Shown here one piece after another: positions 38,125 through 50,365 of a DNA stretch of 64,000 nt. Below the pieces are notes generated by a model that was not told where the DNA came from, searched no databases, and worked only from the letters and a program-made list of their open reading frames with translations. The translations under genes and the position numbers were made by a program. Each line of letters begins with the position of its first letter. Within the stretch, counting starts at the first letter, position 1. The DNA lies in NCBI GenBank assembly GCA_963737635.1, contig CAVTTL010000001.1, positions 1,536,001-1,600,000 on the forward strand. Reading direction: 5' to 3'. The DNA comes from an uncultured Methanoregulaceae archaeon. Its GTDB lineage: Archaea; Halobacteriota; Methanomicrobia; Methanomicrobiales; Methanospirillaceae.

Positions 38125-41100
38125 GTGCAGATGTGGGGAAAAGGGTACCGTATTTTAAGTATATTTACTATCAGCTGCATTCTTGCGATTCTGGTACTTC
38201 CCGGGATCAGTTCGGGAGCTATCAAAATTGGAACGAAAACTTATACGACGCTTGAAGATGCCATAGCTGCAGCAAATCCCAGCCAGACATTACTTTTAAT
38301 CAGTGACACCCCGGTGACCCTGACTCCTGGTAATATTACTGCAATTGGTAAAACTCTGACTATACAACAAAATAATACCGTTCCGTATAAAATTCTCCTG
38401 AATGGTACGATTGCATTCAATGGAACTATTAAAAGCTATACCTTAAATCCAGGCGTCAACCTCACATTAGCAACATCATATGCATTAATTTTTAGCTCAC
38501 GATCCTACTGGACCCGCGATATTCCAGAATGATTCTCTTATTGAAATCACCGGAAATTCGAATTCATTTTCTGTCAATGAACCTCATCCTGATTTGCTCC
38601 CAGGAGCATTTTCCGGTACGGGAGTAAATCTTACAGGAAATAGCAATTCTCTCAATTCTTGGATTGGCGAGATCGACTCCCGTACTTCCAATTTATCGGT
38701 AGTGTTCAACTTAGCAGGCTCATACAACAGTATCAGTGATTCTTTGTCTTGTCCGCTGATTACCAACGCCAGTGGGGGTATCGGACTCAAGGTTATTGGC
38801 AATTTTAATGGGGCGTCCGGAACGCCTTCTGCTAGTGGAAATCAGGAAAATCCAGTGACTTTTCTCCCGGAAATTTCCCCGCCTATCTATATCGCCACAA
38901 ATCAAATGAGCGCTCCAGGTGGGAGAATCTATATTGCTCCATCAGCAAATGGGAATGTTATCGAGGATGATAGTTTCGATCTGACCGCTCAACCAACTGT
39001 TTATCTCTCGAACGGAACTGCAAACACACCGACGACATCCTGGTATTTCTTCAACAGTTCATGGTCGCCGTCCGGTGGAAACAGAAACGTCAGTATCTAT
39101 TCCTCTTCACCATGGATTTTCCCTCTCGCGGGAAACATCAGCCTCGTTGCAGGTTTTTCTAATGTTACAGGGCAATCGACGGATATTATCCAAAATAACT
39201 CCTTGTCCTTGGATACTTCAACCGATGCGACATCCGGTGAATCATCAGGGAGTCTCCTGACAAATGATACCAGCTCCCTGAACTTCAGCTCGATTTCTGC
39301 AGTTGTCCCAGTTGGCATGGCAATGGGAAACAATACATATCTCGATGTGTATGGCAATACTGTATCTACCCTCGGATCTCTTGGTTACGTAACCATCCTT
39401 GACTTCGACCCCTATCATTCCCTCCCCGGTGAAAACTTCAATGAGACACAGACGACCAACTGGGGTTCGATATCGGACTTCAGGACAGTCCCTAATCTTA
39501 CATTCGTCGTTGAAAATCCAACCACGCATGCGTTGCTCGGGAATGTCAGTTACGATCAGAATCTTAGTCTTTTAGCTCAGGGAATAGATTCAGGCCTTTC
39601 CATATTTGGGAACAATTTCGATATTTCTTCGACTGGAAATAGCACCAATTTTACCATGACAAACACGACCCTTAATCTGACCTTCAACTCATCGGCCACC
39701 CTAACGATGTACCCCAATAACTTCCCATTTGCAAGTTCTGGGAACATAACGATTGTTGCAACTACCGATGCGGGATCAGCAACTACGATTTTCGATAAAG
39801 GTGCCTTGCTTAACCAAGGTGCTGGTTTTGTTGCTCCTTCCCAGACACCTACTGTTGTAGCGGATACCAGCATAACCCTCCCGATCCTTCAGTTCAGTAA
39901 GTTCGATTTCTTTGAAACGGATCCGGTCGCATCTTTTACGAGTAGTACCACATTCGGTTATGAACCTCTTGCAGTTCAGTTTAATGATACTTCAACTTTC
40001 AACCCGACTGGATGGAACTGGTCGTTCGGGGACGGCACCTGGTTCAATACGACCGATACCACCCAAAGAAATGTAACTCATATTTTCGGTTCAGCAGGTA
40101 GTTTTCCCGTATTTCTAACCGCCTCAGATGTCGGTGGATCCAATATAACCTCACCAATCTACATCAACGTCTCAGCATCTCTGCCGATCCCTGTATTTAC
40201 CGGCACGCCGACATTCGGCTACGAGCCCCTGAATGTCCAGTTTAATGACAGCACGCCATCGACCGGCATTCTGTATTGGAACTGGTCGTTTGGGGATAAC
40301 AACTGGTTCAACACTACGGACAGCACGCTTCGGAATATTTCGCATCCCTATTCCTCCGTCGGAAGCTACACGGTTAACCTGAGCATTACAAACCAGTCCG
40401 GACTGAGCTCCCCTGCGATCGTCAGTAACACGACGTCAATAGCGAATTATATTAATGTCTCATCCCCTCCACCAATACCATCGTTTACCAGTAATACCAC
40501 GTTCGGGTATGTGCCACTCGGAGTCCAGTTCAACGATACGACAGTTTCAATGAATATCCTGTATTGGAACTGGTCGTTCGGTGATAATACCTGGTTCAAT
40601 ACCACGGTCAGCGCGCTTCGGAATATTTCGCATCCCTATTCCTCCATCGGAAGTTACACGGTGAACCTGAGCATCACGAATTCAACCGGCCTCAGCGTCC
40701 CGGCAACAAATACCAACACGACGTCAATAGCGAATTATATTAATGTCTCATCCCCTCCGCCAATACCATCGTTTACCAGTAATACGACGTCCGGGTATGT
40801 ACCGCTTGGGATCCAGTTCAATGATACGACGGTTTCAACGAATATCCAGTACTGGAACTGGTCATTCGGTGATAACACGTGGTTCAATACCACTGATGAT
40901 ATGCTTCGGAATGCGACGCACCAGTATGTATCTTCAGGAAGTTACACGGTGAACCTGAGCGTCACGAATTTAACCGGCCTTAGCTTTCCGGCAACAAATA
41001 CCAACACAACGTCGATTGCGAATTATATTGATGCCTTATCACTTCCAATTCCTGATTTCACGGGATCGCCGAGGAGTGGAAATGCAACCCTGAATGTCCA

Positions 41101-43128
41101 GTTCAACGATACGTCAACACCCTTGGGCATTATCTTATGGAACTGGTCGTTCGGCGACAATACATGGTTTAACACTACGAACAGCATACTCCGGAACGCC
41201 ACCCATACGTACCAGATTGAAGGGGCATATACCGTAAACCTGTCATTGACCAACTCATCGGGAACAAATACCACATATCAGCCCGGATACATCGTTGTGT
41301 ACCCACCCCTTCCCATACCAGCTTTCATAGGATCACCGACAAGCGGAAGTATCCCGCTATTCGTGCAGTTCAACGATACCTCCCCCTCCCCCGGTATCAC
41401 CATCTGGAACTGGTCGTTCGGTGACAATACGTGGTTTAACACGACCGATAGTACGGCTAGGAACGCATCGCATACATATTCGGCAATCGGCTCCTTTACC
41501 GTGAACTTGACCATCACTAATACTACCGGCGTAAACACCACCAGCATGTCGGGTTACATCCGAACTACGCCGCCCCCCCCCTCCCCTCATTTACCGCTTC
41601 ACCGGTAGCGGGTGCCACTCCGCTTTTAGTCCAGTTCAACGATACGTCAACATCACTAGGCATTACATTGTGGAACTGGTCATTTGGCGACAATAGCTGG
41701 TTTAATACGACCGATGCCACCCAAAGAAATGCTTCTCACACCTATGTCTCCGGAGGAACCTTTACCGTGAGCCTGTCGTTGACCAATTCGTCCGGGACAA
41801 ACACTACGTCGATACCGGGCTACATCAGCGTTACGGCACTGCCCTCCAGCGTCAGTTTTACTGCGTCACCGACATCTGGTTCAATACCTCTCTTTGTCCG
41901 GTTCACTGATACGTCGACATCCCTTGGCATTACGGTATGGAACTGGTCGCTCGGGGACAATACCTGGTTCAATACGACCGATGCCACCCAAAGAAATGCC
42001 ATTCATACCTATGTCAGTGCCGGCAGTTATACGGTGAACCTCACGATAACCAATACTTCTGGAACGGATACCGCCTCAAGTTTCAATCTCATCACTGCAA
42101 CCATTCCGACGGTGACGACAACTTCCGGGAGAAGCGGTCGCGGAGCTACTACCGCAACCTTTTTGTATGCGATCCAGCAGGCACCAACATCATCCATTAC
42201 CCCGGCCACCACCCCGGTTACCCCTGCAAGTACCACGCCGGTGGAAATTTCCTCTAACCCCGGGCTGACCTCAACAATAAACATTGTACCCGATGGTATC
42301 AGGTTCCCACCTGCAACAGACGGAGTGCAACAATTCTTGCTCAACCGGATGACTGCTGAACATGCCGGTTACACAGTCGAGAGCACGAAAGACAGCGTAA
42401 CCGCGACTGGGTCTGACGATATTTTTGTTATTAATGGGGTTAATATCATGGAGAATCCTCCCGGCTTCATCACGGGTTCTGTCCAGAATGTCAATTTTGT
42501 CCTCCAACCTGCTCCTGCAGCTCTTAGTATTGGGAAAGTTTCAGTTATTGCCGGGGCATCGCTGCCAACGCTTCCGGAAAATGGAGCTGATATCAGCATA
42601 ACCGTATCCGATCTTGTTCCAGATGAAACGATGAGCGCATTCCGTGGCGTTGCTGCACAGCAGGGCCAGACGATTACATCGGTGGGTTATACGGCTGCAT
42701 TCCGAAAGGAAGGAATAACGGCCACCGGTCCGGGAGACATCCGGATGACCAGCCCGGCTGGCTGGGTAAACCAGCATGGGGGTATCCCTTCCGTCAGCAT
42801 AGTTCATATCGGCGATGACAACTCAGCTGAAATTCTCAACACTAATTATGCCGGAACCGACTCTTCGGGAAATCTTATATTCGAAGCTGATTCGCCCAGT
42901 GGGCTTTCCACATTCGGCTTGGTCACCCTGAAAAACCAGTCTCTCTCAGTCCCGGCCGAAACGCAGAATTTGGGACAGATCGGAAATCGCGTTGGGACAT
43001 ACTCGTCGGCTCTTTCTGTTGTCACCGAAAATATTCTTGTCATCGCTGCTGTTCTTCTTTGTCTTGTTGTAATTGTTGCAGCTTTATGGTTGCGCCGGAG
43101 AAAATACGACTGGTTATTCATGAAGTAA
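38125..43128 (+). CDS. Giant cell-surface glycoprotein: N-terminal beta domains, 8 PKD domains, PGF-pre-PGF-like domain, TM anchor; frameshifts at ~38492 and ~41580
   Basis: Signal peptide in 38125..38532; eight WNWS(F/L)GD repeats; DSPSGLSTFG; TM helix followed by RRRK. Confidence 0.85.
40150..41030 (+). repeat. Three near-identical 288-bp PKD-coding tandem repeats
   Basis: AACACGACGTCAATAGCGAATTATATTAATGTCTCATCCCCTCC occurs at 40427 and 40715; a third, more diverged copy is near 41003. Confidence 0.85.
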
Positions 43129-43251
43129 GGTTATCGTAAAAACAGCACAAAGCATGTCTGACTAATCCGGGATCTTGTGGACTGGATCTCCAGTCCGGCC
43201 TCTTACTTTTCGCATCCAGTTTCCGGTAACCGACAATCCCTTTACCACATG

Positions 43252-44494
43252 TCATAATTGAGGTGAAATCACCGGTGCAAGCTTTCTCCGCAGCTGGTTC
43301 AGCATCTCTTCCCGTGATTTAATCTCCCTGTTGACAGTATCAATATCTCCGGTTAATCCGTCCTGAACCGACTCCGTTGCTGAATGATCGGCACGAAGTA
43401 TCCCAAGGAGACTTCCTATCAACTTCGACTCTCTTGCGCAGTCGGGCATATTCGCATACCATCTCTTTTTCATATCCGGCCCTCGTCGCAGCGCGAATAT
43501 CCTGCTTGATTAACTCTCTGCGTTTCAGCACATACTCAATTTCGCTATACAGTTCCTGTGCATTGACCGGTTTGAGGATATAATCATCGATGCACAACCC
43601 ATACCTGCGTGCCTGCGCCGGGGTAGGTGCAAAACCAGTCAGCATGAGCACCGGGATCTTCTTTGTCAAGGGGTTTTTCTTGATCTCTTCGAGAGTCTCC
43701 CACCCGTCCATGGGGTACATCTTGACGTCAAGCAGGATAAGATCGGGACGTTTCCACCATGCCTTTAAGATTGAAAGGCATTCTTGGCCGCTGAACGCCC
43801 GGAGCGTGACATACCCTTTTTTCTCAAGCAGGAGTGAGAACACTTCCACGATATCTTTCTCGTCATCGACAATGAGAATTTTTTCAGGCAGGTGACGGAA
43901 GGACAGGGTGTAATATGCCAATCCGGATATGCCTATGATAATAATTCCCGATATCAGAAGAATTACGGCGGTGAACCCGGAATTTTGAGATCCAGCTTGA
44001 TTTTGGACGACCTGCATATCAGGATCTTCGGGGTAGATCTGCTGAAATGCAGATATAGCCGGAGAAAGATCGACGGTAACAAGGGTATCCCCGGTTGCAG
44101 TATCCTCAAGGAAGACGTACCGGAGATCCGGAGTGAAAGGGACGATCACACCGAAGTTTCCATTTTGGGAATATTGGCTGCTTCCACTAAAGACCTGCCC
44201 CGACGTTTCGGTGCTGATTGCCTCTCCTACCTGGGTACTGGGATCCCTGATGGAAAATTCATTAATGATCCTGTTCTGCCCATCGAGAAGCAGACCCTTA
44301 ATACTGCCGGTTTGGATATTGAGGTTGGGCGGAATCCCGTACTGTATTTCAGAAGAGACCTCTTTTATCCCCGTACCACTATAGGAAAAGCTGATAACGA
44401 CAATCTTCTGGTAGGAATTTGCTTGGGCGACTGCCGGATACACAAGTAAAAGCGAGAGCAGAAGGATGAGTCCGGCAAATTTCTTCACATCCAT
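43252..44494 (-). CDS. Signal peptide + extracellular domain + TM + receiver domain protein, frameshift at ~43411
   Basis: Signal MDVKKFAGLILLLSLLLVYPAVAQA; TM TAVILLISGIIIIGISGLAYY; REC ILIVDDE/LLDVKM/LTG/ILKP. Confidence 0.85.
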
Positions 44495-44505
44495 AGTTCA
44501 CCGTT

Positions 44506-45768
44506 TCATGATTGGTCAGGAGATACTCTAGTCAGTACATACAATATTCTTTTAGTCGAGGCATTCCCGAAGGTTCCATCATATCCATCGTGCATGATAT
44601 CCGGGTCAGGGTCCCATCGCCAGAACTCCTTGGTGCATACGCTTGGCTCACCAGACGAAATCTGTCTGCAGACGTCGGGGTTCCAGGAATTTGCAATAGC
44701 ATAGTCCTTACAGTTCCCAAGGGAGCTCCAGACATTTGGATCGGGATCATTCTGGGCATAATAGGTATCTCCACAATACGTATCGATAAGACCATACAGA
44801 CCGTGACCAATCTCGTGCATGGCAAGGAAAGGCATATTCGCTGAAATCTTGAGGTATACCCTGCCCAACCCATTTGGGTTTGTGCATCCTATCGGCGGGC
44901 TGGGAGGTCCCGCATACCTACCACTAACTGAAGGGTAAAGAATAATGGTCAGATCACTAAAGGTGACTTCATCCCAGTAGGTTTCCGGGATCGTTCCTGC
45001 ACAGCCGTTAAATGCATCCCCGTAAGTCTTACCATCCCAGAAATAGTAAAAATTGAACCGTTTCTCGTAATCTTCAGGAAGGGGATAAGAGGGCGAGGTG
45101 ATCACCGGATATTGAAGAAACGTAGTGGCGATGAATTGGCGTACATCCGCCTCAAACTGCTGTTGTCCTCCGGGATATCCCCCCATCTGTATTGTGGCAT
45201 TTTCCGTATAGTTAAACGATGTATCCGATGGCAGGAAAACGATATTTATTCTCGATGCCGGAGGACCGTTTATTTCTATCGGAATTATATCGGAAGGGGC
45301 AAGGCTTATGATCACCTCGCCAGCCCTATTCAGGTCTGACTGGACAGTTTTATCCAGATAACCATCTTTTGCGGCCCGGATTGTGCTGATATTCGATCCG
45401 GAACCGGTAATCGGAAGAATAAAAGTTCCGTTATTAGAAGATGTGCCTACAAAAAGACCATTGATATATAGTGAGACTCCGGAGAGAGGAGCTCCGCTTT
45501 TTAAATTGGTGATTACGATCCAGACATACGGGCCGAGAGGTATAGCTGGACCTTCCTGGACCGGTATGACAGATCCGGCGATGGTCCGGTTCACAACTGG
45601 CTGGGCAATGCCAGCATCCTGGCTTGAGACATTAGGTACTATGCCTGATGCCCGTGAATTTCCAAACGAAATATTGAGTAAAAAAAGAATACCCGAAGTG
45701 ACGATAAATAGTATTCCTACACAGAAGAACGCAACGGATCCCCATCGGAATAAAGTTTTCCTGTCCAT
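44506..45768 (-). CDS. Membrane-anchored M64 (IgA peptidase)-like zinc metallopeptidase with a PEGA/CarboxypepD-like domain
   Basis: N-terminal TM; NGPPASRINIVFL; HEIGHGLYGLID (HExxHxxxGxxD); PNV; DIM Met-turn. Confidence 0.75.
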   Translation of the reverse strand: MDRKTLFRWGSVAFFCVGILFIVTSGILFLLNISFGNSRASGIVPNVSSQDAGIAQPVVNRTIAGSVIPVQEGPAIPLGPYVWIVITNLKSGAPLSGVSLYINGLFVGTSSNNGTFILPITGSGSNISTIRAAKDGYLDKTVQSDLNRAGEVIISLAPSDIIPIEINGPPASRINIVFLPSDTSFNYTENATIQMGGYPGGQQQFEADVRQFIATTFLQYPVITSPSYPLPEDYEKRFNFYYFWDGKTYGDAFNGCAGTIPETYWDEVTFSDLTIILYPSVSGRYAGPPSPPIGCTNPNGLGRVYLKISANMPFLAMHEIGHGLYGLIDTYCGDTYYAQNDPDPNVWSSLGNCKDYAIANSWNPDVCRQISSGEPSVCTKEFWRWDPDPDIMHDGYDGTFGNASTKRILYVLTRVSPDQS

Positions 45769-46026
45769 CTGTCTTCGTCCAGATCCATGTTCTTAAATTG
45801 AGAAAAAAAAATTTATTCTCTGTAAAAGTCTCTTTCTGCGATTTTCTCGTTTGGAATTTTATTCTTAAATGCTCTATGCAGTTGCTGAGCATCTTACATC
45901 ATTATTTATATGGATTTTTTTTGTTTTAAGATATTATAGGCGATTGCTGAGCATTTTCCGTTCTTTTATCATTATGCCTTGCCATCAAACACATACGATC
46001 GCTTGGATCGAATGATGTGATGACTC

Positions 46027-46584
46027 ATGAAAGCAAGATTATTGATTATTGTTGGCCTTATGATCATGGCCGTAGCGTTGACGGTTGCGCCAGTGATGGC
46101 ATTATCGACAGGAACAACTTCTATAACGGGAAATCCGCAGTCGTATGTTTCGATCACTCTGAGTAATACTTCGGTATATCTACCATTAGACCCGTCAAAT
46201 TCTCCCGCTACTAACTCTTCTATGGGTATAACAGTCTTGACCAATATTCCATTCAGCATTACTGTTGCAGATAGTACCGGGCGCTCTACAGGACAAGGGT
46301 TTTTGGGAAATTACACGAGCGGCGTATATGATGCGTCTCCATTGAATACGGACTTAGGCTCACCTATCCAACTAACCGGAACCACTAACACCACTACAAC
46401 TGCAGATTCGATTACCCCGCCAATAACTACTGGCTCACCACAGACATTCTTTACAGGATCTTCATACGTCACCAACCAGGTTCTTGCAACCGAGTTCACT
46501 CAGCCGGTTGCATATACTGATCCGGTGTTACCACTGGATTCCACGTATAGAATTGATTTGACGTTCAGCATCGGAGCGACATGA
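46027..46584 (+). CDS. Secreted beta-sandwich protein, putative major fibre subunit
   Basis: Signal peptide ending VMA; C-terminal QPVAYTD...YRIDLTF; no anchor. Confidence 0.75.
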   Translation: MKARLLIIVGLMIMAVALTVAPVMALSTGTTSITGNPQSYVSITLSNTSVYLPLDPSNSPATNSSMGITVLTNIPFSITVADSTGRSTGQGFLGNYTSGVYDASPLNTDLGSPIQLTGTTNTTTTADSITPPITTGSPQTFFTGSSYVTNQVLATEFTQPVAYTDPVLPLDSTYRIDLTFSIGAT

Positions 46585-46633
46585 GTGATTAAGGTTCTGA
46601 ATTACTTTTCATTTTTATATCGCATCCCTATGA

Positions 46634-47176
46634 GTGATAATTATGATGGCAAATTTTCAGGGATTTCTAGTGATACTTTTCGCGGTTTCTGCTACCGCTG
46701 CGATTTTGGGTCTTGTTTTGCCGGTTGGGGCCGCAACGATTACTCTATCGGTTGACGGAAACATCCAGAACTGGACGCTTATACCGGGAAGTACAAATGA
46801 AAATTCCACCGCGGTGACCCTGAATGTTTCCTGCGACAGTTCTTCATGGACGGTCAGCGTCGTGGACAATCTCGATGATGATAAACCCGCTGCTGGTGCC
46901 GGAAGAATGGCAGAATACAACACAACTACCGGTTATGTCAATAGCGGAAGTATTCTCGGAGCGAATTTGACCGTGGAGGGAGGATCCGCTGTGAACATGA
47001 CTAATACAACGGCAACTCTAGGCCCCACCGATCAGGTTATAGAAACGGGAAATAATATCGTCACCAATGTACAGGTGCCGGTTGCTATGAGCCAACAGGT
47101 TGCTACGACGGATCTTCATTTAACAAATGGCGATGAATATCGTGTTGTCATAACGTTCGTAGGGGGGACATCATGA
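46634..47176 (+). CDS. Secreted paralog of 46027..46584, putative minor or tip subunit
   Basis: Signal peptide ending VGA; QQVATTD...YRVVITF; aligns by eye over its full length with the upstream gene. Confidence 0.75.
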   Translation: MIIMMANFQGFLVILFAVSATAAILGLVLPVGAATITLSVDGNIQNWTLIPGSTNENSTAVTLNVSCDSSSWTVSVVDNLDDDKPAAGAGRMAEYNTTTGYVNSGSILGANLTVEGGSAVNMTNTTATLGPTDQVIETGNNIVTNVQVPVAMSQQVATTDLHLTNGDEYRVVITFVGGTS

Positions 47177-47234
47177 TGTACAGGCGAAAATTATACATAA
47201 TCGCAGTTTCATTTTCCTTTATCAAGTCTTCGAT

Positions 47235-48244
47235 GTGAGGTGTGATATGACATATATGCAACAACGATTCTGGTCGACAAGGATCGCACTTTCGGCTATC
47301 GTAATTCTTTTGCTTCTCTGCATAGCACCAACAGCCGCTCTCGGCGTACTGGGTGCAAAGTACACCGGGAGTATTGCTCCCGGTGGAAAGGATACTCACG
47401 TGATGACCATCGAAATCGGGGCAGATGAATCGCCTACCGATGTTATGGTGGAAGTTGCGGGATTCGGGCAGAATGCCAACGGAATTTATGTACCGCTGGA
47501 TCCGGCGACTGACGTAAGCCCGTATTCAGCCCGGAGTTTTATCACTCTTGATAATACTACGCTTCACCTCGAGCCAGGTACGGAGCAAAGTGTAACGGCG
47601 ACAATCTCTCTTCCACAGGATACCGGCCCGGCGGCCGGTACGCGATCCTCTATGTCCGTTCAATCCCGGGTGCAGGTCAATCCCTTGCAACGGCAGTAGT
47701 CGTTCCCATGTTCATTACTGTCGCTGGGACGAAGCCAACAGAAACCGGTAGTATTACACAGATAGGCACGGGAACGGTCGCTATCGGCCAGCCGATCACA
47801 ATTACGACGACCTTCAAAAATACCGGCAATTATCATTATTATTCTGCAAGTGACGAAGTGACCGTGAGTGATTCGAATGGAATCATCGTTGCAAATACAT
47901 CGACGACACCGATGGCCTATGCGATCATCCCTGGCAACACAGTGCAGTTTGTCACGCAGCCTCAGGTAAAAAACCTGCAGGCAGGGACCTACACGGTAAA
48001 TTCGACAGTTCTTCTGAACGGCCAGGTATTGGATCAAAAGAGTACGACATTTACTGTTACTGCGACTGTACCGCCTACAACCGAATCGGGGGAAGCGGTG
48101 AGCCCAGTGGGCCAGGTCACCTCAGCGGGTGCAGGATCTCCCACTAGTGTACCGACGAAGGCATCCATGCCCTCTGTGCTGAGTATTGTAGCCTTGGCTG
48201 CTACAGCAATTATTGTAGGCGGTGCGGTCAGGCAGAGGAAATGA
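47235..48244 (+). CDS. DUF916/DUF3324- or PapD-like two-Ig-domain protein with C-terminal TM sorting signal, frameshift at ~47630
   Basis: LHLEPGTEQSVTATISLP...GG(R)YAILYV, FKNTGNYH, IIPGNT; tail PTKASMPSVLSIVALAATAIIVGGAVRQRK. Confidence 0.7.
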
Positions 48245-50365
48245 CCTCCAAAAAAATACCTCTTGTTTTTATTATCATTTGCTGCTGTTTTTTTACGGTA
48301 TCGGTTCTTTTGTCAAATTCTGCTGGTGCTCTGGATTCCGTGACGGTGGGAATAACCGGCCGTATCCCGCTGGTTACATACAACATCTCAGTCATCGGTA
48401 TCGATACCGGCAATGCCACTGTCACGTGGAGCACGAACGGGAATGCCAACAGCACAGTGCTGTATGGCACGACAACGAGTTACGGATCCTCCAGCACTGA
48501 CGATGTCATGACAGAGGACCACACGATATCCCTGCACAGTTTGACACCCGGCACGATATACCATTACCAGATGGTATCGGTCGACCTGAGCGGTAACCAA
48601 GCCATAAGTGCTGATCAGGTGTTCACTACAGCCAACATTTCGCAAGGGACCGTGGTAACTACGACCACTACGTCGACGACGTTTTCTGGGACGACGATCC
48701 AGACGGTTGGCGGGGTTCAGCAGGTCAGTCTCAATGAATCGACCATTCAAGGAACAATCCAGGTTTCCGGAAACACCGTAAACATCCAAAATCCGGGTAA
48801 CGGCTGGGCTACAATGCAATATGTCGGTTCAGCGGTCACGGATCTTAACGGTAATATCAGCACGGGACAGATCCAGAGTGTGAGCATGGTGAGCGACCCG
48901 GTCACAGCGTCCCTTGGCAGTACCATTGGTACGGTCAGCACTCAGATCAATATAGGGCTGACTCAGATCGTACCTGATCTAACTATTCAGCAGAGCATTA
49001 TCGAGGGAGCGAGTCCTACCGTTTCAGATGCCTTCCAGATCGCGGCAGCGAACAATAATCTCAATGTGCAGGCCATTGCCTATACGGTACAGTTCCAGAA
49101 TACGGCCCAGTTAGACGCCAACCTGAATTCTGCTGGGGTTGAACTGAATATGAGTGTCGACAATGCATGGGTGGCCGAAAATGCGAATGGCAGTGTGAAT
49201 AATGTAAAGATCTTCCGTTTTGGAGATGATGGGACAGAGGAAGTCCTCAGTACGACGTATCTTGGCAGTCAGGGCACCACCGATTATTTCCAAGCCTGTC
49301 TCACCTCACGGGATTTCCACGTTCGGTATTGCGGCCGTGGCCTCCAGTAGCACAACCGGCAGCAGTTCCAGTAGCGGGACGAATGGTGGTAATTCGGGCT
49401 CTTCCGGATCAGGTCGATCACAGGCACCCTCGGCAGTCCAGCCCGTGGCCCCGGCGCAGGTTGCACCCGCGCCCCAGGTTCAGCCACGACTCGGACCTCC
49501 GCAGAATGCACCCACGACAACACAGTCACTGGTTGTTGCCGGATTAACCACAACAACCGGACTATCTGGAATTCAGGTCTTCGCATTCAACACTACGCTG
49601 GCGGCCCAATCCGGTGTTTCAGCAACTGTCGAGAATGCCACTGTTATTATCAACCAGCCCGGTCTTATCCTGACTATTGTCACAAACGGAACCCTCTCTA
49701 TCGAGAACGGAGAAATCTCGGGCACCGTCCAATCTGTTGGCATAAACACGACGCCATCAGATACTATCCTGAGTTTTGGGCGGGTTTCAGTATCGATCAA
49801 TGCTTCGCTTGCCACTATTCCGGAAAATGCAGCGATTACAACTACCGTCTCAGAAGTGGTGAGTTCTGACGTCAAGAGCGCATTCCAGCGGGCAGCGAAG
49901 GACAATAACCGGCAGATCGAAGCGATTGCCTACGTTTTGAACATTGAAAAAACCAACTTTGAAGCGACAGGTCCGGCTACGGTGACCATGACTATAATTC
50001 CTGACTGGGTTACGAACCATGGCGGCATTGGATCGATAGCAATTGTGCGGATAGGTGATGATCAGACCGTCGAAATGCTTGCCACTTCCTTTATCGGGAC
50101 GGATGTGCAGGGATCCCTTGTCTTCGATGGCTATTCTCCGCATGGTTTATCTGTATTTGGTCTTACTGCCGTGACAATCGCACGTCAGCCGCAACAATCG
50201 GCCACATCTGAGTCACTCCTGCAAGCGGAATTCGGAGAAATGGGCGCGGTTCTTGGAGGAATCACCGGATTGATCAAGAACAATTATGCCATCATACTTG
50301 TTGTGGGTCTTATTACGGCGGGTATCCTAGCCTATGTTGTCTGGCGTATACGCAGACGAACGTGA
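48241..50365 (+). CDS. Cell-surface anchor protein: FN3 domain + two PGF-pre-PGF-like domains + TM, frameshift at ~49295
   Basis: FN3 ATVTWSTN...VLYGTTTSYG...LTPGTIYHYQM; SPHGISTFG and SPHGLSVFG; TM followed by RIRRRT; ATGA overlap with the upstream gene. Confidence 0.8.

Follow-up and report, generated by a model that had tools for sequence, protein, structure and literature searches.

A Conserved Archaeal Operon Predicted to Encode an Usher-Free, Chaperone-Guided Donor-Strand Pilus

Introduction

Can an archaeon build a surface pilus whose subunits are handed on by a dedicated chaperone? The question is raised by four adjacent genes of an uncultured Methanoregulaceae archaeon (NCBI GenBank assembly GCA_963737635.1, contig CAVTTL010000001.1), at 46027-50365 of the 64,000-nucleotide stretch that we analyzed (contig positions 1,536,001 to 1,600,000, forward strand; hereafter the window, to which the coordinates below refer). 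A sequence-only reading of this DNA had proposed that the genes, here A to D, constitute an undescribed operon for a donor-strand fiber. From the genes and their predicted folds, we consider it probable that this operon directs the assembly of an usher-free, chaperone-guided donor-strand pilus at the archaeal surface. It also seems likely that the pathway is a chaperone-assisted pilus in Archaea, shared with some Chloroflexota. What is new here is the archaeal extension of such pili, since the kind itself is by now described in bacteria (Elr and Pam). The earlier claim of an undescribed system is thus retained only for Archaea: our literature search, which covered subscription journals thinly, found no archaeal case of a chaperone-guided donor-strand pilus.

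The Elr/WxL pilus of Enterococcus faecalis and other Bacillota is presented in a preprint as consisting of the chaperone ElrE (WxLIP, of DUF916-DUF3324-transmembrane composition), the pilins ElrD and ElrC, the tip ElrA and the terminator ElrB (10.64898/2026.10.17.759780). The available text of that preprint shows donor-strand chemistry for the Enterococcus WxL clusters, tests ElrD and ElrE by Escherichia coli co-expression, gives the donor consensus as S/T-x-G/A-x-V/I-x-F and, from a survey by Pfam cut-offs of one proteome per genus in 4,698 genera, calls the system confined to Bacillota (10.64898/2026.10.17.759780). For the Pam pilus of candidate phyla radiation (CPR) bacteria, a second preprint names the pilins PamA, PamB and PamE, the chaperones PamC and PamD, the tip PamT and the terminator PamR; its available text proposes a donor-strand division of labor and calls the pilins exclusive to CPR (PMC13278184). 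Archaeal threads (PMC9715654), cannulae (PMC12518558) and Tafi (PMC11821415, PMC12337348) are described, in what these reports make available, without a chaperone or usher, and WxL domains are stated in another source to be found only in bacteria (PMC9772566).

Results and Discussion

An Intact and Conserved Four-Gene Operon

The four genes lie on the plus strand in the order A (46027-46584), B (46646-47176, with an alternative upstream GTG at 46634, the start taken in the sequence-only reading), C (47247-48244) and D (48241-50365). Between A and B lie 61 nucleotides and between B and C 70, and C and D overlap as ATGA, so that the co-orientation and tight spacing reported earlier were confirmed. 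In the present assembly C and D are each interrupted by a one-base frameshift. At position 47629, in C, contigs from four of four public runs (four studies) carry one extra base; at 49295, in D, contigs from two of the four runs have one base fewer, a third run has a loose end there and the fourth provides no row. In addition, an intact C of 332 amino acids (aa) exists in the protein collection (P0177), 100% identical to both C halves. Since contigs of independent runs differ at these positions and an intact C exists, the frameshifts are assembly errors, with one base missing at 47629 and one extra at 49295, and the same evidence leads us to reject the view that C and D are pseudogenes. Of the 11 open reading frame (ORF) pieces of 38125-50365 that were scanned, none matched an usher, SipW or an ATPase, in agreement with the sequence-only reading.

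The gene-neighborhood comparison which that reading had called for found the genes syntenic in relatives. An A-family gene lies within 7 kb of C in 30 of 32 C loci, and in the other two there are large secreted proteins whose C-terminal ends are similar but divergent. In genomes of the same genus the arrangement A, B (or a large putative tip gene), C, D is seen again at various places on the chromosome. The gene of the small A-type protein is usually the first of its unit. The operon is real, intact and conserved.

A and B Belong to an Unnamed Pilin-Like Family

A and B are paralogs (29% identity over 177 columns, E 2e-6), with the motifs named in the sequence-only reading, and they are the sole matches to their family profile in their own genome, which is 90% complete. 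The family comprises 899 clusters at E<=0.001 and is unnamed. Gene A, the predicted shaft pilin (donor plus acceptor), encodes a precursor of 185 aa with a signal peptide of 25 aa (signal peptides were assigned by eye and hydropathy), a 12-aa N-terminal extension and a predicted incomplete immunoglobulin (Ig)-like pilin domain that reaches the C-terminus; gene B encodes 176 aa, is without the extension and is predicted to be an acceptor-only tip subunit. A C-terminal hydrophobic segment is found in none of the 150 family members listed, which fits the earlier observation that A and B have no membrane anchor. A terminal Tyr motif occurs in 125 of the 150 rows, in 108 of them exactly 12 residues from the end. 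Members longer than 260 aa account for 48 of the 150 best matches and bear the domain at the extreme C-terminus in 44 cases. Most larger members scanned (25/28) have PKD, TIG, Kelch, ice-binding-like, beta-helix or Gly-rich domains, and the very large ones reach 3252 aa.

In the structure model of A (pLDDT 96.0, 112-row alignment), residues 1-15 are confident yet form no paired strand. Donor-strand pilins make up almost the whole set of structural neighbors of the model (CfaE, Z 9.3; TLP-1a, 8.4; FimH pilin domain, 7.6; CsuA/B, 7.5), and its core (about 13-160) aligns with pilin domains in the chaperone-bound state as far as their C-terminal ends (FimH 279, PapG 316, CsuE 312). Chaperone-bound pilin chains of chaperone-usher systems are incomplete, without their last strand. 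We predict for A a pilin-like fold with an incomplete Ig domain and a free N-terminal donor strand. The WxL likeness once attributed to A and B did not hold at the sequence level: by Pfam and by profile comparison they are not WxL domains, and PF13731 (WxL) matched 0 of 23 family rows at E<=1. The profile of the A family found two chance-level matches only among PDB sequences, and its comparison with eight Chloroflexota pilin-like neighbors returned a probability of 0.2%. The nearest named Atlas cluster to A (0.92) has 20% WxL members and is of a kind flagged as often chance; in fold searches, chaperone-usher pilins and TLP-1 rank top, and the WxL chain of 9i25 is not among the matches listed, which does not mean that the two folds are different.

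N-glycosylation sequons are present in mature A (four, 46102-46581) and mature B (seven, 46733-47173), so the fiber would probably be glycosylated. Three related loci (L027:3939-5114, L028:4695-5798, L030:4526-5791) also encode subunits of tip type in which the pilin domain precedes further Ig-like domains; there, one or two other secreted genes stand between pilin and chaperone.

Donor-Like Strands and a Predicted Division of Roles

The 87 small family rows comprise 67 of A type (one of them a fragment), in which 30-40 residues separate the hydrophobic stretch from the first strand of the core, 16 of B type, with 16-27 residues in this interval and no extension, and four fragments. The extension pattern T/S-G-x-A/T-x-I/V-T-G-N-P is found in A and not in B; as derived from 64 A-type rows, the donor motif reads T/S-G-T/S-A/T-x-I/V-T-G, then N-P. 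A matrix trained on these 64 rows was applied with 389 signal-peptide-like ORFs of the genome as controls. In A, the strand predicted to act as donor (mature residues 1-12; 46102-46137, plus strand) scores 18.7 bits, the highest value among the 389. Since the N-terminal donor strand is missing from B, this protein should cap the chain as a tip rather than serve as a second shaft subunit. The proposal that A and B both polymerize is therefore kept, as a prediction, for A and given up for B, which is the sole tip candidate found, as only A and B match the family profile in the genome.

C Has the Predicted Fold of a WxLIP-Like Chaperone

The halves of C match the WxLIP Pfam domains PF06030 and PF11797 in the right order, weakly (E 0.053 and 0.089). 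In its family, 9 of 12 rows match PF06030 and 3 of 12 match PF11797 below the cut-offs (best E 2.1e-4), and one homolog, P0240, passes PF06030 (27.9 vs 27.3 bits); a search of plasmids with P0240 gave nothing of use. The two best PDB sequence matches of the C profile are both EfmWxLIP1 (E 0.041 and 0.05). The structure model (96-row alignment, pLDDT 87.6) consists of two beta domains, a linker and a helix at 313-329. The top three Foldseek rows for this model are Enterococcus faecium WxLIP (9i1y, 9i25; E 1.6e-12 to 8.2e-12), followed further down by the chaperones CfaA, CsuC and SafB, and a wide search of 48,161 chains again placed WxLIP first (Z 18.2, 235 residues aligned, root-mean-square deviation 4.8), the next match (Z 14.1) covering one domain only. 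The first Atlas match is a WxLIP cluster (0.94), at a recognition value of 2297, just under the 2300 mark. Furthermore, the proteins found with the C profile include some from Chloroflexota that pass both PF06030 and PF11797 (locus L100) and stand beside PF13731-passing proteins. C is thus, by modeled fold and weakly by sequence, a membrane-tethered two-domain chaperone of WxLIP/DUF916 type, as had been supposed; the assignment is made because of the fold and not of the NTGN motif alone. A complex prediction of C (32-273) with mature A scored 0.85, but an unrelated control partner scored 0.71, which makes the result no evidence either way. C homologs often carry a further C-terminal domain (forms of about 455 aa).

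The tails of some C homologs (P0234, L056, L069, L070) have P-G-F ahead of the hydrophobic stretch. In this they are like archaeosortase signals, for which no NCBIfam match was obtained.

D as the Candidate Base

Gene D (plus strand; about 707 aa) encodes a predicted donor-only base or terminator in which a signal peptide is followed by a donor-like strand (mature residues 1-13; 48331-48369, plus strand), an FN3-like domain, two copies of an unnamed extracellular domain (35% identical to each other) and a hydrophobic, transmembrane C-tail. The FN3-like match is below cut-off (Pur_ac_phosph_N, E 2.7e-6; fn3, E 0.043), and LPxTG was not found before the tail. From an earlier description of D as FN3, PGF-pre-PGF-like and transmembrane parts, the first and last remain and the middle one was not confirmed. 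Neither the tail of C nor that of D has an NCBIfam match at E<=1, so PGF-pre-PGF was rejected for both. Archaeosortase processing of C or D is possible but unsupported; the genome has one exosortase-family gene, elsewhere (G000:C1:2100846-2101433).

In D and its orthologs a donor-like motif comes right after the signal peptide, then an FN3-like or PKD domain and usually a membrane tail, with no pilin domain. Minimal forms of about 200 aa, with donor strand, FN3-like domain and tail, occur in two loci (L075 and L080). The survey of D-type genes covered 32 loci, of which 10 had no candidate and 5 another kind of gene right behind C. The 17 FN3-type genes begin with the A-type motif at a median of 7.9 bits (vs -2.9 in the 389 controls), 10 of them exceeding the controls' 95th percentile, and the motif stands at the start of D-type proteins even when PKD instead of FN3 comes next. 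The likely link of D to the fiber is, to judge by these motifs, its own N-terminal donor-like strand, and a protein with such a start and a membrane tail is well placed for the anchoring role assigned to it earlier. We thus predict a split of roles as in Elr and Pam, with A as shaft, B as tip and D as base.

Distribution of the Cluster

The cluster is found in Methanomicrobiales, Methanotrichaceae and some Chloroflexota, with C homologs in Methanoregula and other Methanomicrobiales and named homologs in Methanothrix, Dehalogenimonas formicexedens, Dehalococcoidia and Anaerolineaceae. When 401 genomes of the window's phylum were searched with the C profile, 45 matched, 24 strongly (E<1e-50, own genome included); the 21 weak matches represent a second family. 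Among 401 genomes from the phylum of a Chloroflexia metagenome-assembled genome, 16 matched, 5 of them at E<1e-29, and one Chloroflexota locus (L054/L095) shows the same pilin-chaperone-FN3 order. A single-protein search recovered A in 8 of 36 same-genus genomes, an undercount relative to the C profile (8/13). In a tree of 50 chaperone rows, a PF06030-type Chloroflexota group and a second archaeal group stand apart from the C family, and the two methanogen groups and the C-like Chloroflexota rows form an unresolved fork. We draw no direction of transfer from this tree.

Related loci also display variants. Five of Methanotrichaceae type (L057, L072, L074, L077, L078) represent a soluble-chaperone variant: the chaperone, of about 270 aa, lacks the membrane tail, several pilin paralogs accompany it, and no evident D-type anchor appears in the stretch examined. 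The second, more distant chaperone-like family, of about 400-430 aa (L082-L087; E 1e-9 to 1e-19 against the C profile; 21 of the 401 genomes), occurs in other families of the phylum and forms its own clade; in L083-L085 the gene is beside secreted proteins of about 350 aa, and that of L083 matches PF11797 (E 1.4e-5). This is possibly a sister system with larger subunits. In two Chloroflexota loci (L100:414-3014 and L105:391-2250) a chaperone over the PF06030 cut-off adjoins a pilin over the PF13731 cut-off, and by the Elr preprint's own rule these are WxL operons outside Bacillota. We found 330 relatives of the L100 pilin, one of them named from Actinobacteria.

Comparison with Known Systems

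The locus resembles Elr, as far as the preprint describes that system, in its membrane-anchored two-domain chaperone of WxLIP fold, its small pilin that is both donor and acceptor, its donor-only terminator and the lack of an usher. Acceptor-only tips with a C-terminal pilin domain and a variable payload (here 44 of 48 large members) are another shared trait, as is the presence of chaperone and pilin genes within 10 kb (in the window and in 30 of 32 related loci). In contrast, the pilins here are not PF13731, the donor motif does not fit the Elr consensus, C is below the PF06030 and PF11797 cut-offs, the host is an archaeon and the predicted base, a large membrane protein containing FN3 or PKD, has neither LPxTG nor a sortase anchor. 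Pam, according to its preprint, shares a chaperone with C-terminal helix and membrane anchoring without sortase; B is like PamT, a single-domain tip without donor strand, and D is like PamR, an FN3-type terminator with N-terminal strand and C-terminal helix (PMC13278184). Unlike A, which is one 160-aa domain, the Pam major pilins are given there as two-domain proteins with an internal linker strand (PMC13278184), and the Pam family models have no NCBIfam match in A-D. The locus would thus work like Elr and Pam, but the traits that define these two systems place it in neither.

Chaperone-usher pili (archaic Csu, alternate CFA/I) and TLP-1 fibrils, the latter as far as their report describes them (PMC11494351), provide the closest solved folds for A, namely CfaE, TLP-1a/b, CsuA/B and the FimH pilin domain, and secondary ones for C (CfaA, CsuC), at identities of 10-18%. 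They differ from the present case in that no usher was found at the locus (11 ORF pieces) or in the related loci printed, and that the chaperone is membrane-tethered in Methanomicrobiales. Archaeal threads, cannulae and Tafi, as their reports portray them, have in common with the predicted fiber an archaeal host and Ig-like subunits linked through an N-terminal strand. The locus differs from these filaments in its chaperone-fold gene and in showing no SipW-type peptidase among the ORFs scanned, and their fold likeness to A is weak (Z 5.4-7.0).

A Proposed Mechanism and Its Alternatives

In this context, we put forward that all four proteins would be exported by way of their N-terminal signal peptides and that C would donate a strand to each subunit at the membrane and so prime it. 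B, with a groove and no donor strand, would start the chain as its tip, a place taken in relatives by large adhesin-type proteins ending in the same domain. A would then polymerize by donor-strand exchange until D, with its donor-like strand and no pilin domain, fills the last groove and ends growth. The helix of D would keep the fiber in the membrane, a task for which Gram-positive WxL pili have a sortase anchor. The fiber would likely serve to adhere to surfaces or to partner cells.

A number of observations weigh against this proposal. The groove of A is deduced from alignments and not from model coordinates, Z scores of 7-9 for A are near the level that a common beta-sandwich yields, and even the best Foldseek match of A (2.8e-3) stays short of E 0.001, so the likeness is one of fold class and not of close relatives. 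Against 120 relatives of a PF13731-positive Chloroflexota protein, the A family gave 0 of 120 scores over 10 bits, as did shuffles, and an hhalign probability of 0.4%; a WxLIP-like chaperone would therefore be paired with a different pilin family. Phe is not among the common residues of the donor motif (64 rows), and Phe14 of the Elr consensus is missing. A B-type subfamily has further, TIG-like domains after the pilin domain (P0014, P0049, P0063; L027, L028, L030), from which it follows that a free C-terminus is not always needed. The C proteins of Methanotrichaceae have no membrane tail, and in several loci a D-like gene is absent, lies on the opposite strand or encodes no membrane tail. The D strand of the window scores 2.6 bits, less than in orthologs and a level reached by 13% of the controls, which is not significant alone. 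Moreover, the D orthologs are kin, the matrix rows were picked partly by two of the matrix positions and the controls include six-frame ORFs; the D-motif scores are therefore support, not proof.

Other readings of the same genes were weighed. The same chemistry might yield no long fiber if C loaded a tip, B or a giant adhesin, onto a single A subunit or a few of them, with D, and so made a short stalk that presents a surface protein above the surface layer (S-layer). Many loci do hold very large proteins that end in the pilin domain, the ATGA overlap of C and D suggests a terminator made in step with its chaperone, and two loci (L055, L056) encode only large members, with no small A by profile. 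We nevertheless regard a short stalk as rather unlikely, given that small donor-plus-acceptor proteins of A type are the commonest (67 of 87 rows), with a gene usually in first position, as for major pilins, and that the Elr equivalent, by the account in its preprint, makes fibers hundreds of nanometers long. Much less probable is a static platform, in which C would bind A or B permanently by strand donation and keep the complex at the membrane, where it would act as an accessory of the S-layer or a scaffold for binding. C is membrane-anchored and its homologs often have the further C-terminal domain, a WxLIP-WxL complex has been solved (9i25) and such a model was proposed for WxL clusters in the source cited above (PMC9772566). 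A platform does not explain why A has a conserved N-terminal strand, why B is without it and why D uses it again, and the Elr preprint, in its available text, revises the platform model with biochemistry and cryo-electron microscopy.

Fibers of the TasA, AbpA and Tafi type are linked to a dedicated SipW-type peptidase in the locus, and AbpA is reportedly grouped among the archaeal donor-strand filaments. A could likewise self-assemble without chaperone, as in cannulae, threads, AbpA and Tafi, with C serving only as a nucleator or structural base piece. To this reading, to which we give the least credence of all, belong the weak fold likeness of A to CanA (Z 7.0), AbpA (6.6), Saci_0406 (5.8) and TasA (5.4) and the descriptions of the known archaeal filaments, which in the reports cited above include no chaperone or usher. 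It has to contend with the full two-domain chaperone fold of C, which travels with pilin genes in 30 of 32 loci, with the finding of no SipW-type gene in the 11 ORF pieces and with the precise C-terminal end of the subunits, which fits chaperone recognition. A chaperone-guided pilus thus remains our preferred interpretation of the operon.

Genomic Surroundings

A large PKD-repeat surface protein with a membrane tail and no pilin domain is encoded at 38125-43128. It has the unnamed C-terminal domain of D (35% over about 320 residues), and two further copies of this domain are found elsewhere in the genome. The reading frame has a break at 38498, an assembly error in three of four runs, and another near 41600. 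On the minus strand, 43340-45768 encodes a membrane-anchored response regulator with a MetOD2 domain, whose frameshift at 43411 is an assembly error in three of four runs, and an uncharacterized secreted protein with an HExxH-like motif. Similar genes border the cluster in three related loci (L018, L022, L040), and those of the window may therefore be linked to it.

Implications

If the proposal is true, usher-free chaperone pili would be a feature of many single-membrane prokaryotes and not of Bacillota alone. A complete kit of tip, shaft, chaperone and base in methanogens would overturn both the view that archaeal donor-strand filaments are chaperone-free and the view that the WxL pilus is confined to Bacillota. 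It would also give a function to about 900 sequence clusters of "hypothetical" proteins. The proposal is directly testable, since cluster mates of A and C include proteins of a cultured methanogen, Methanoregula boonei 6A8 (Mboo_0961, Mboo_0963 and Mboo_0310). For the methanogens of peat and sediment, the operon represents a candidate means of attachment to surfaces or partners.

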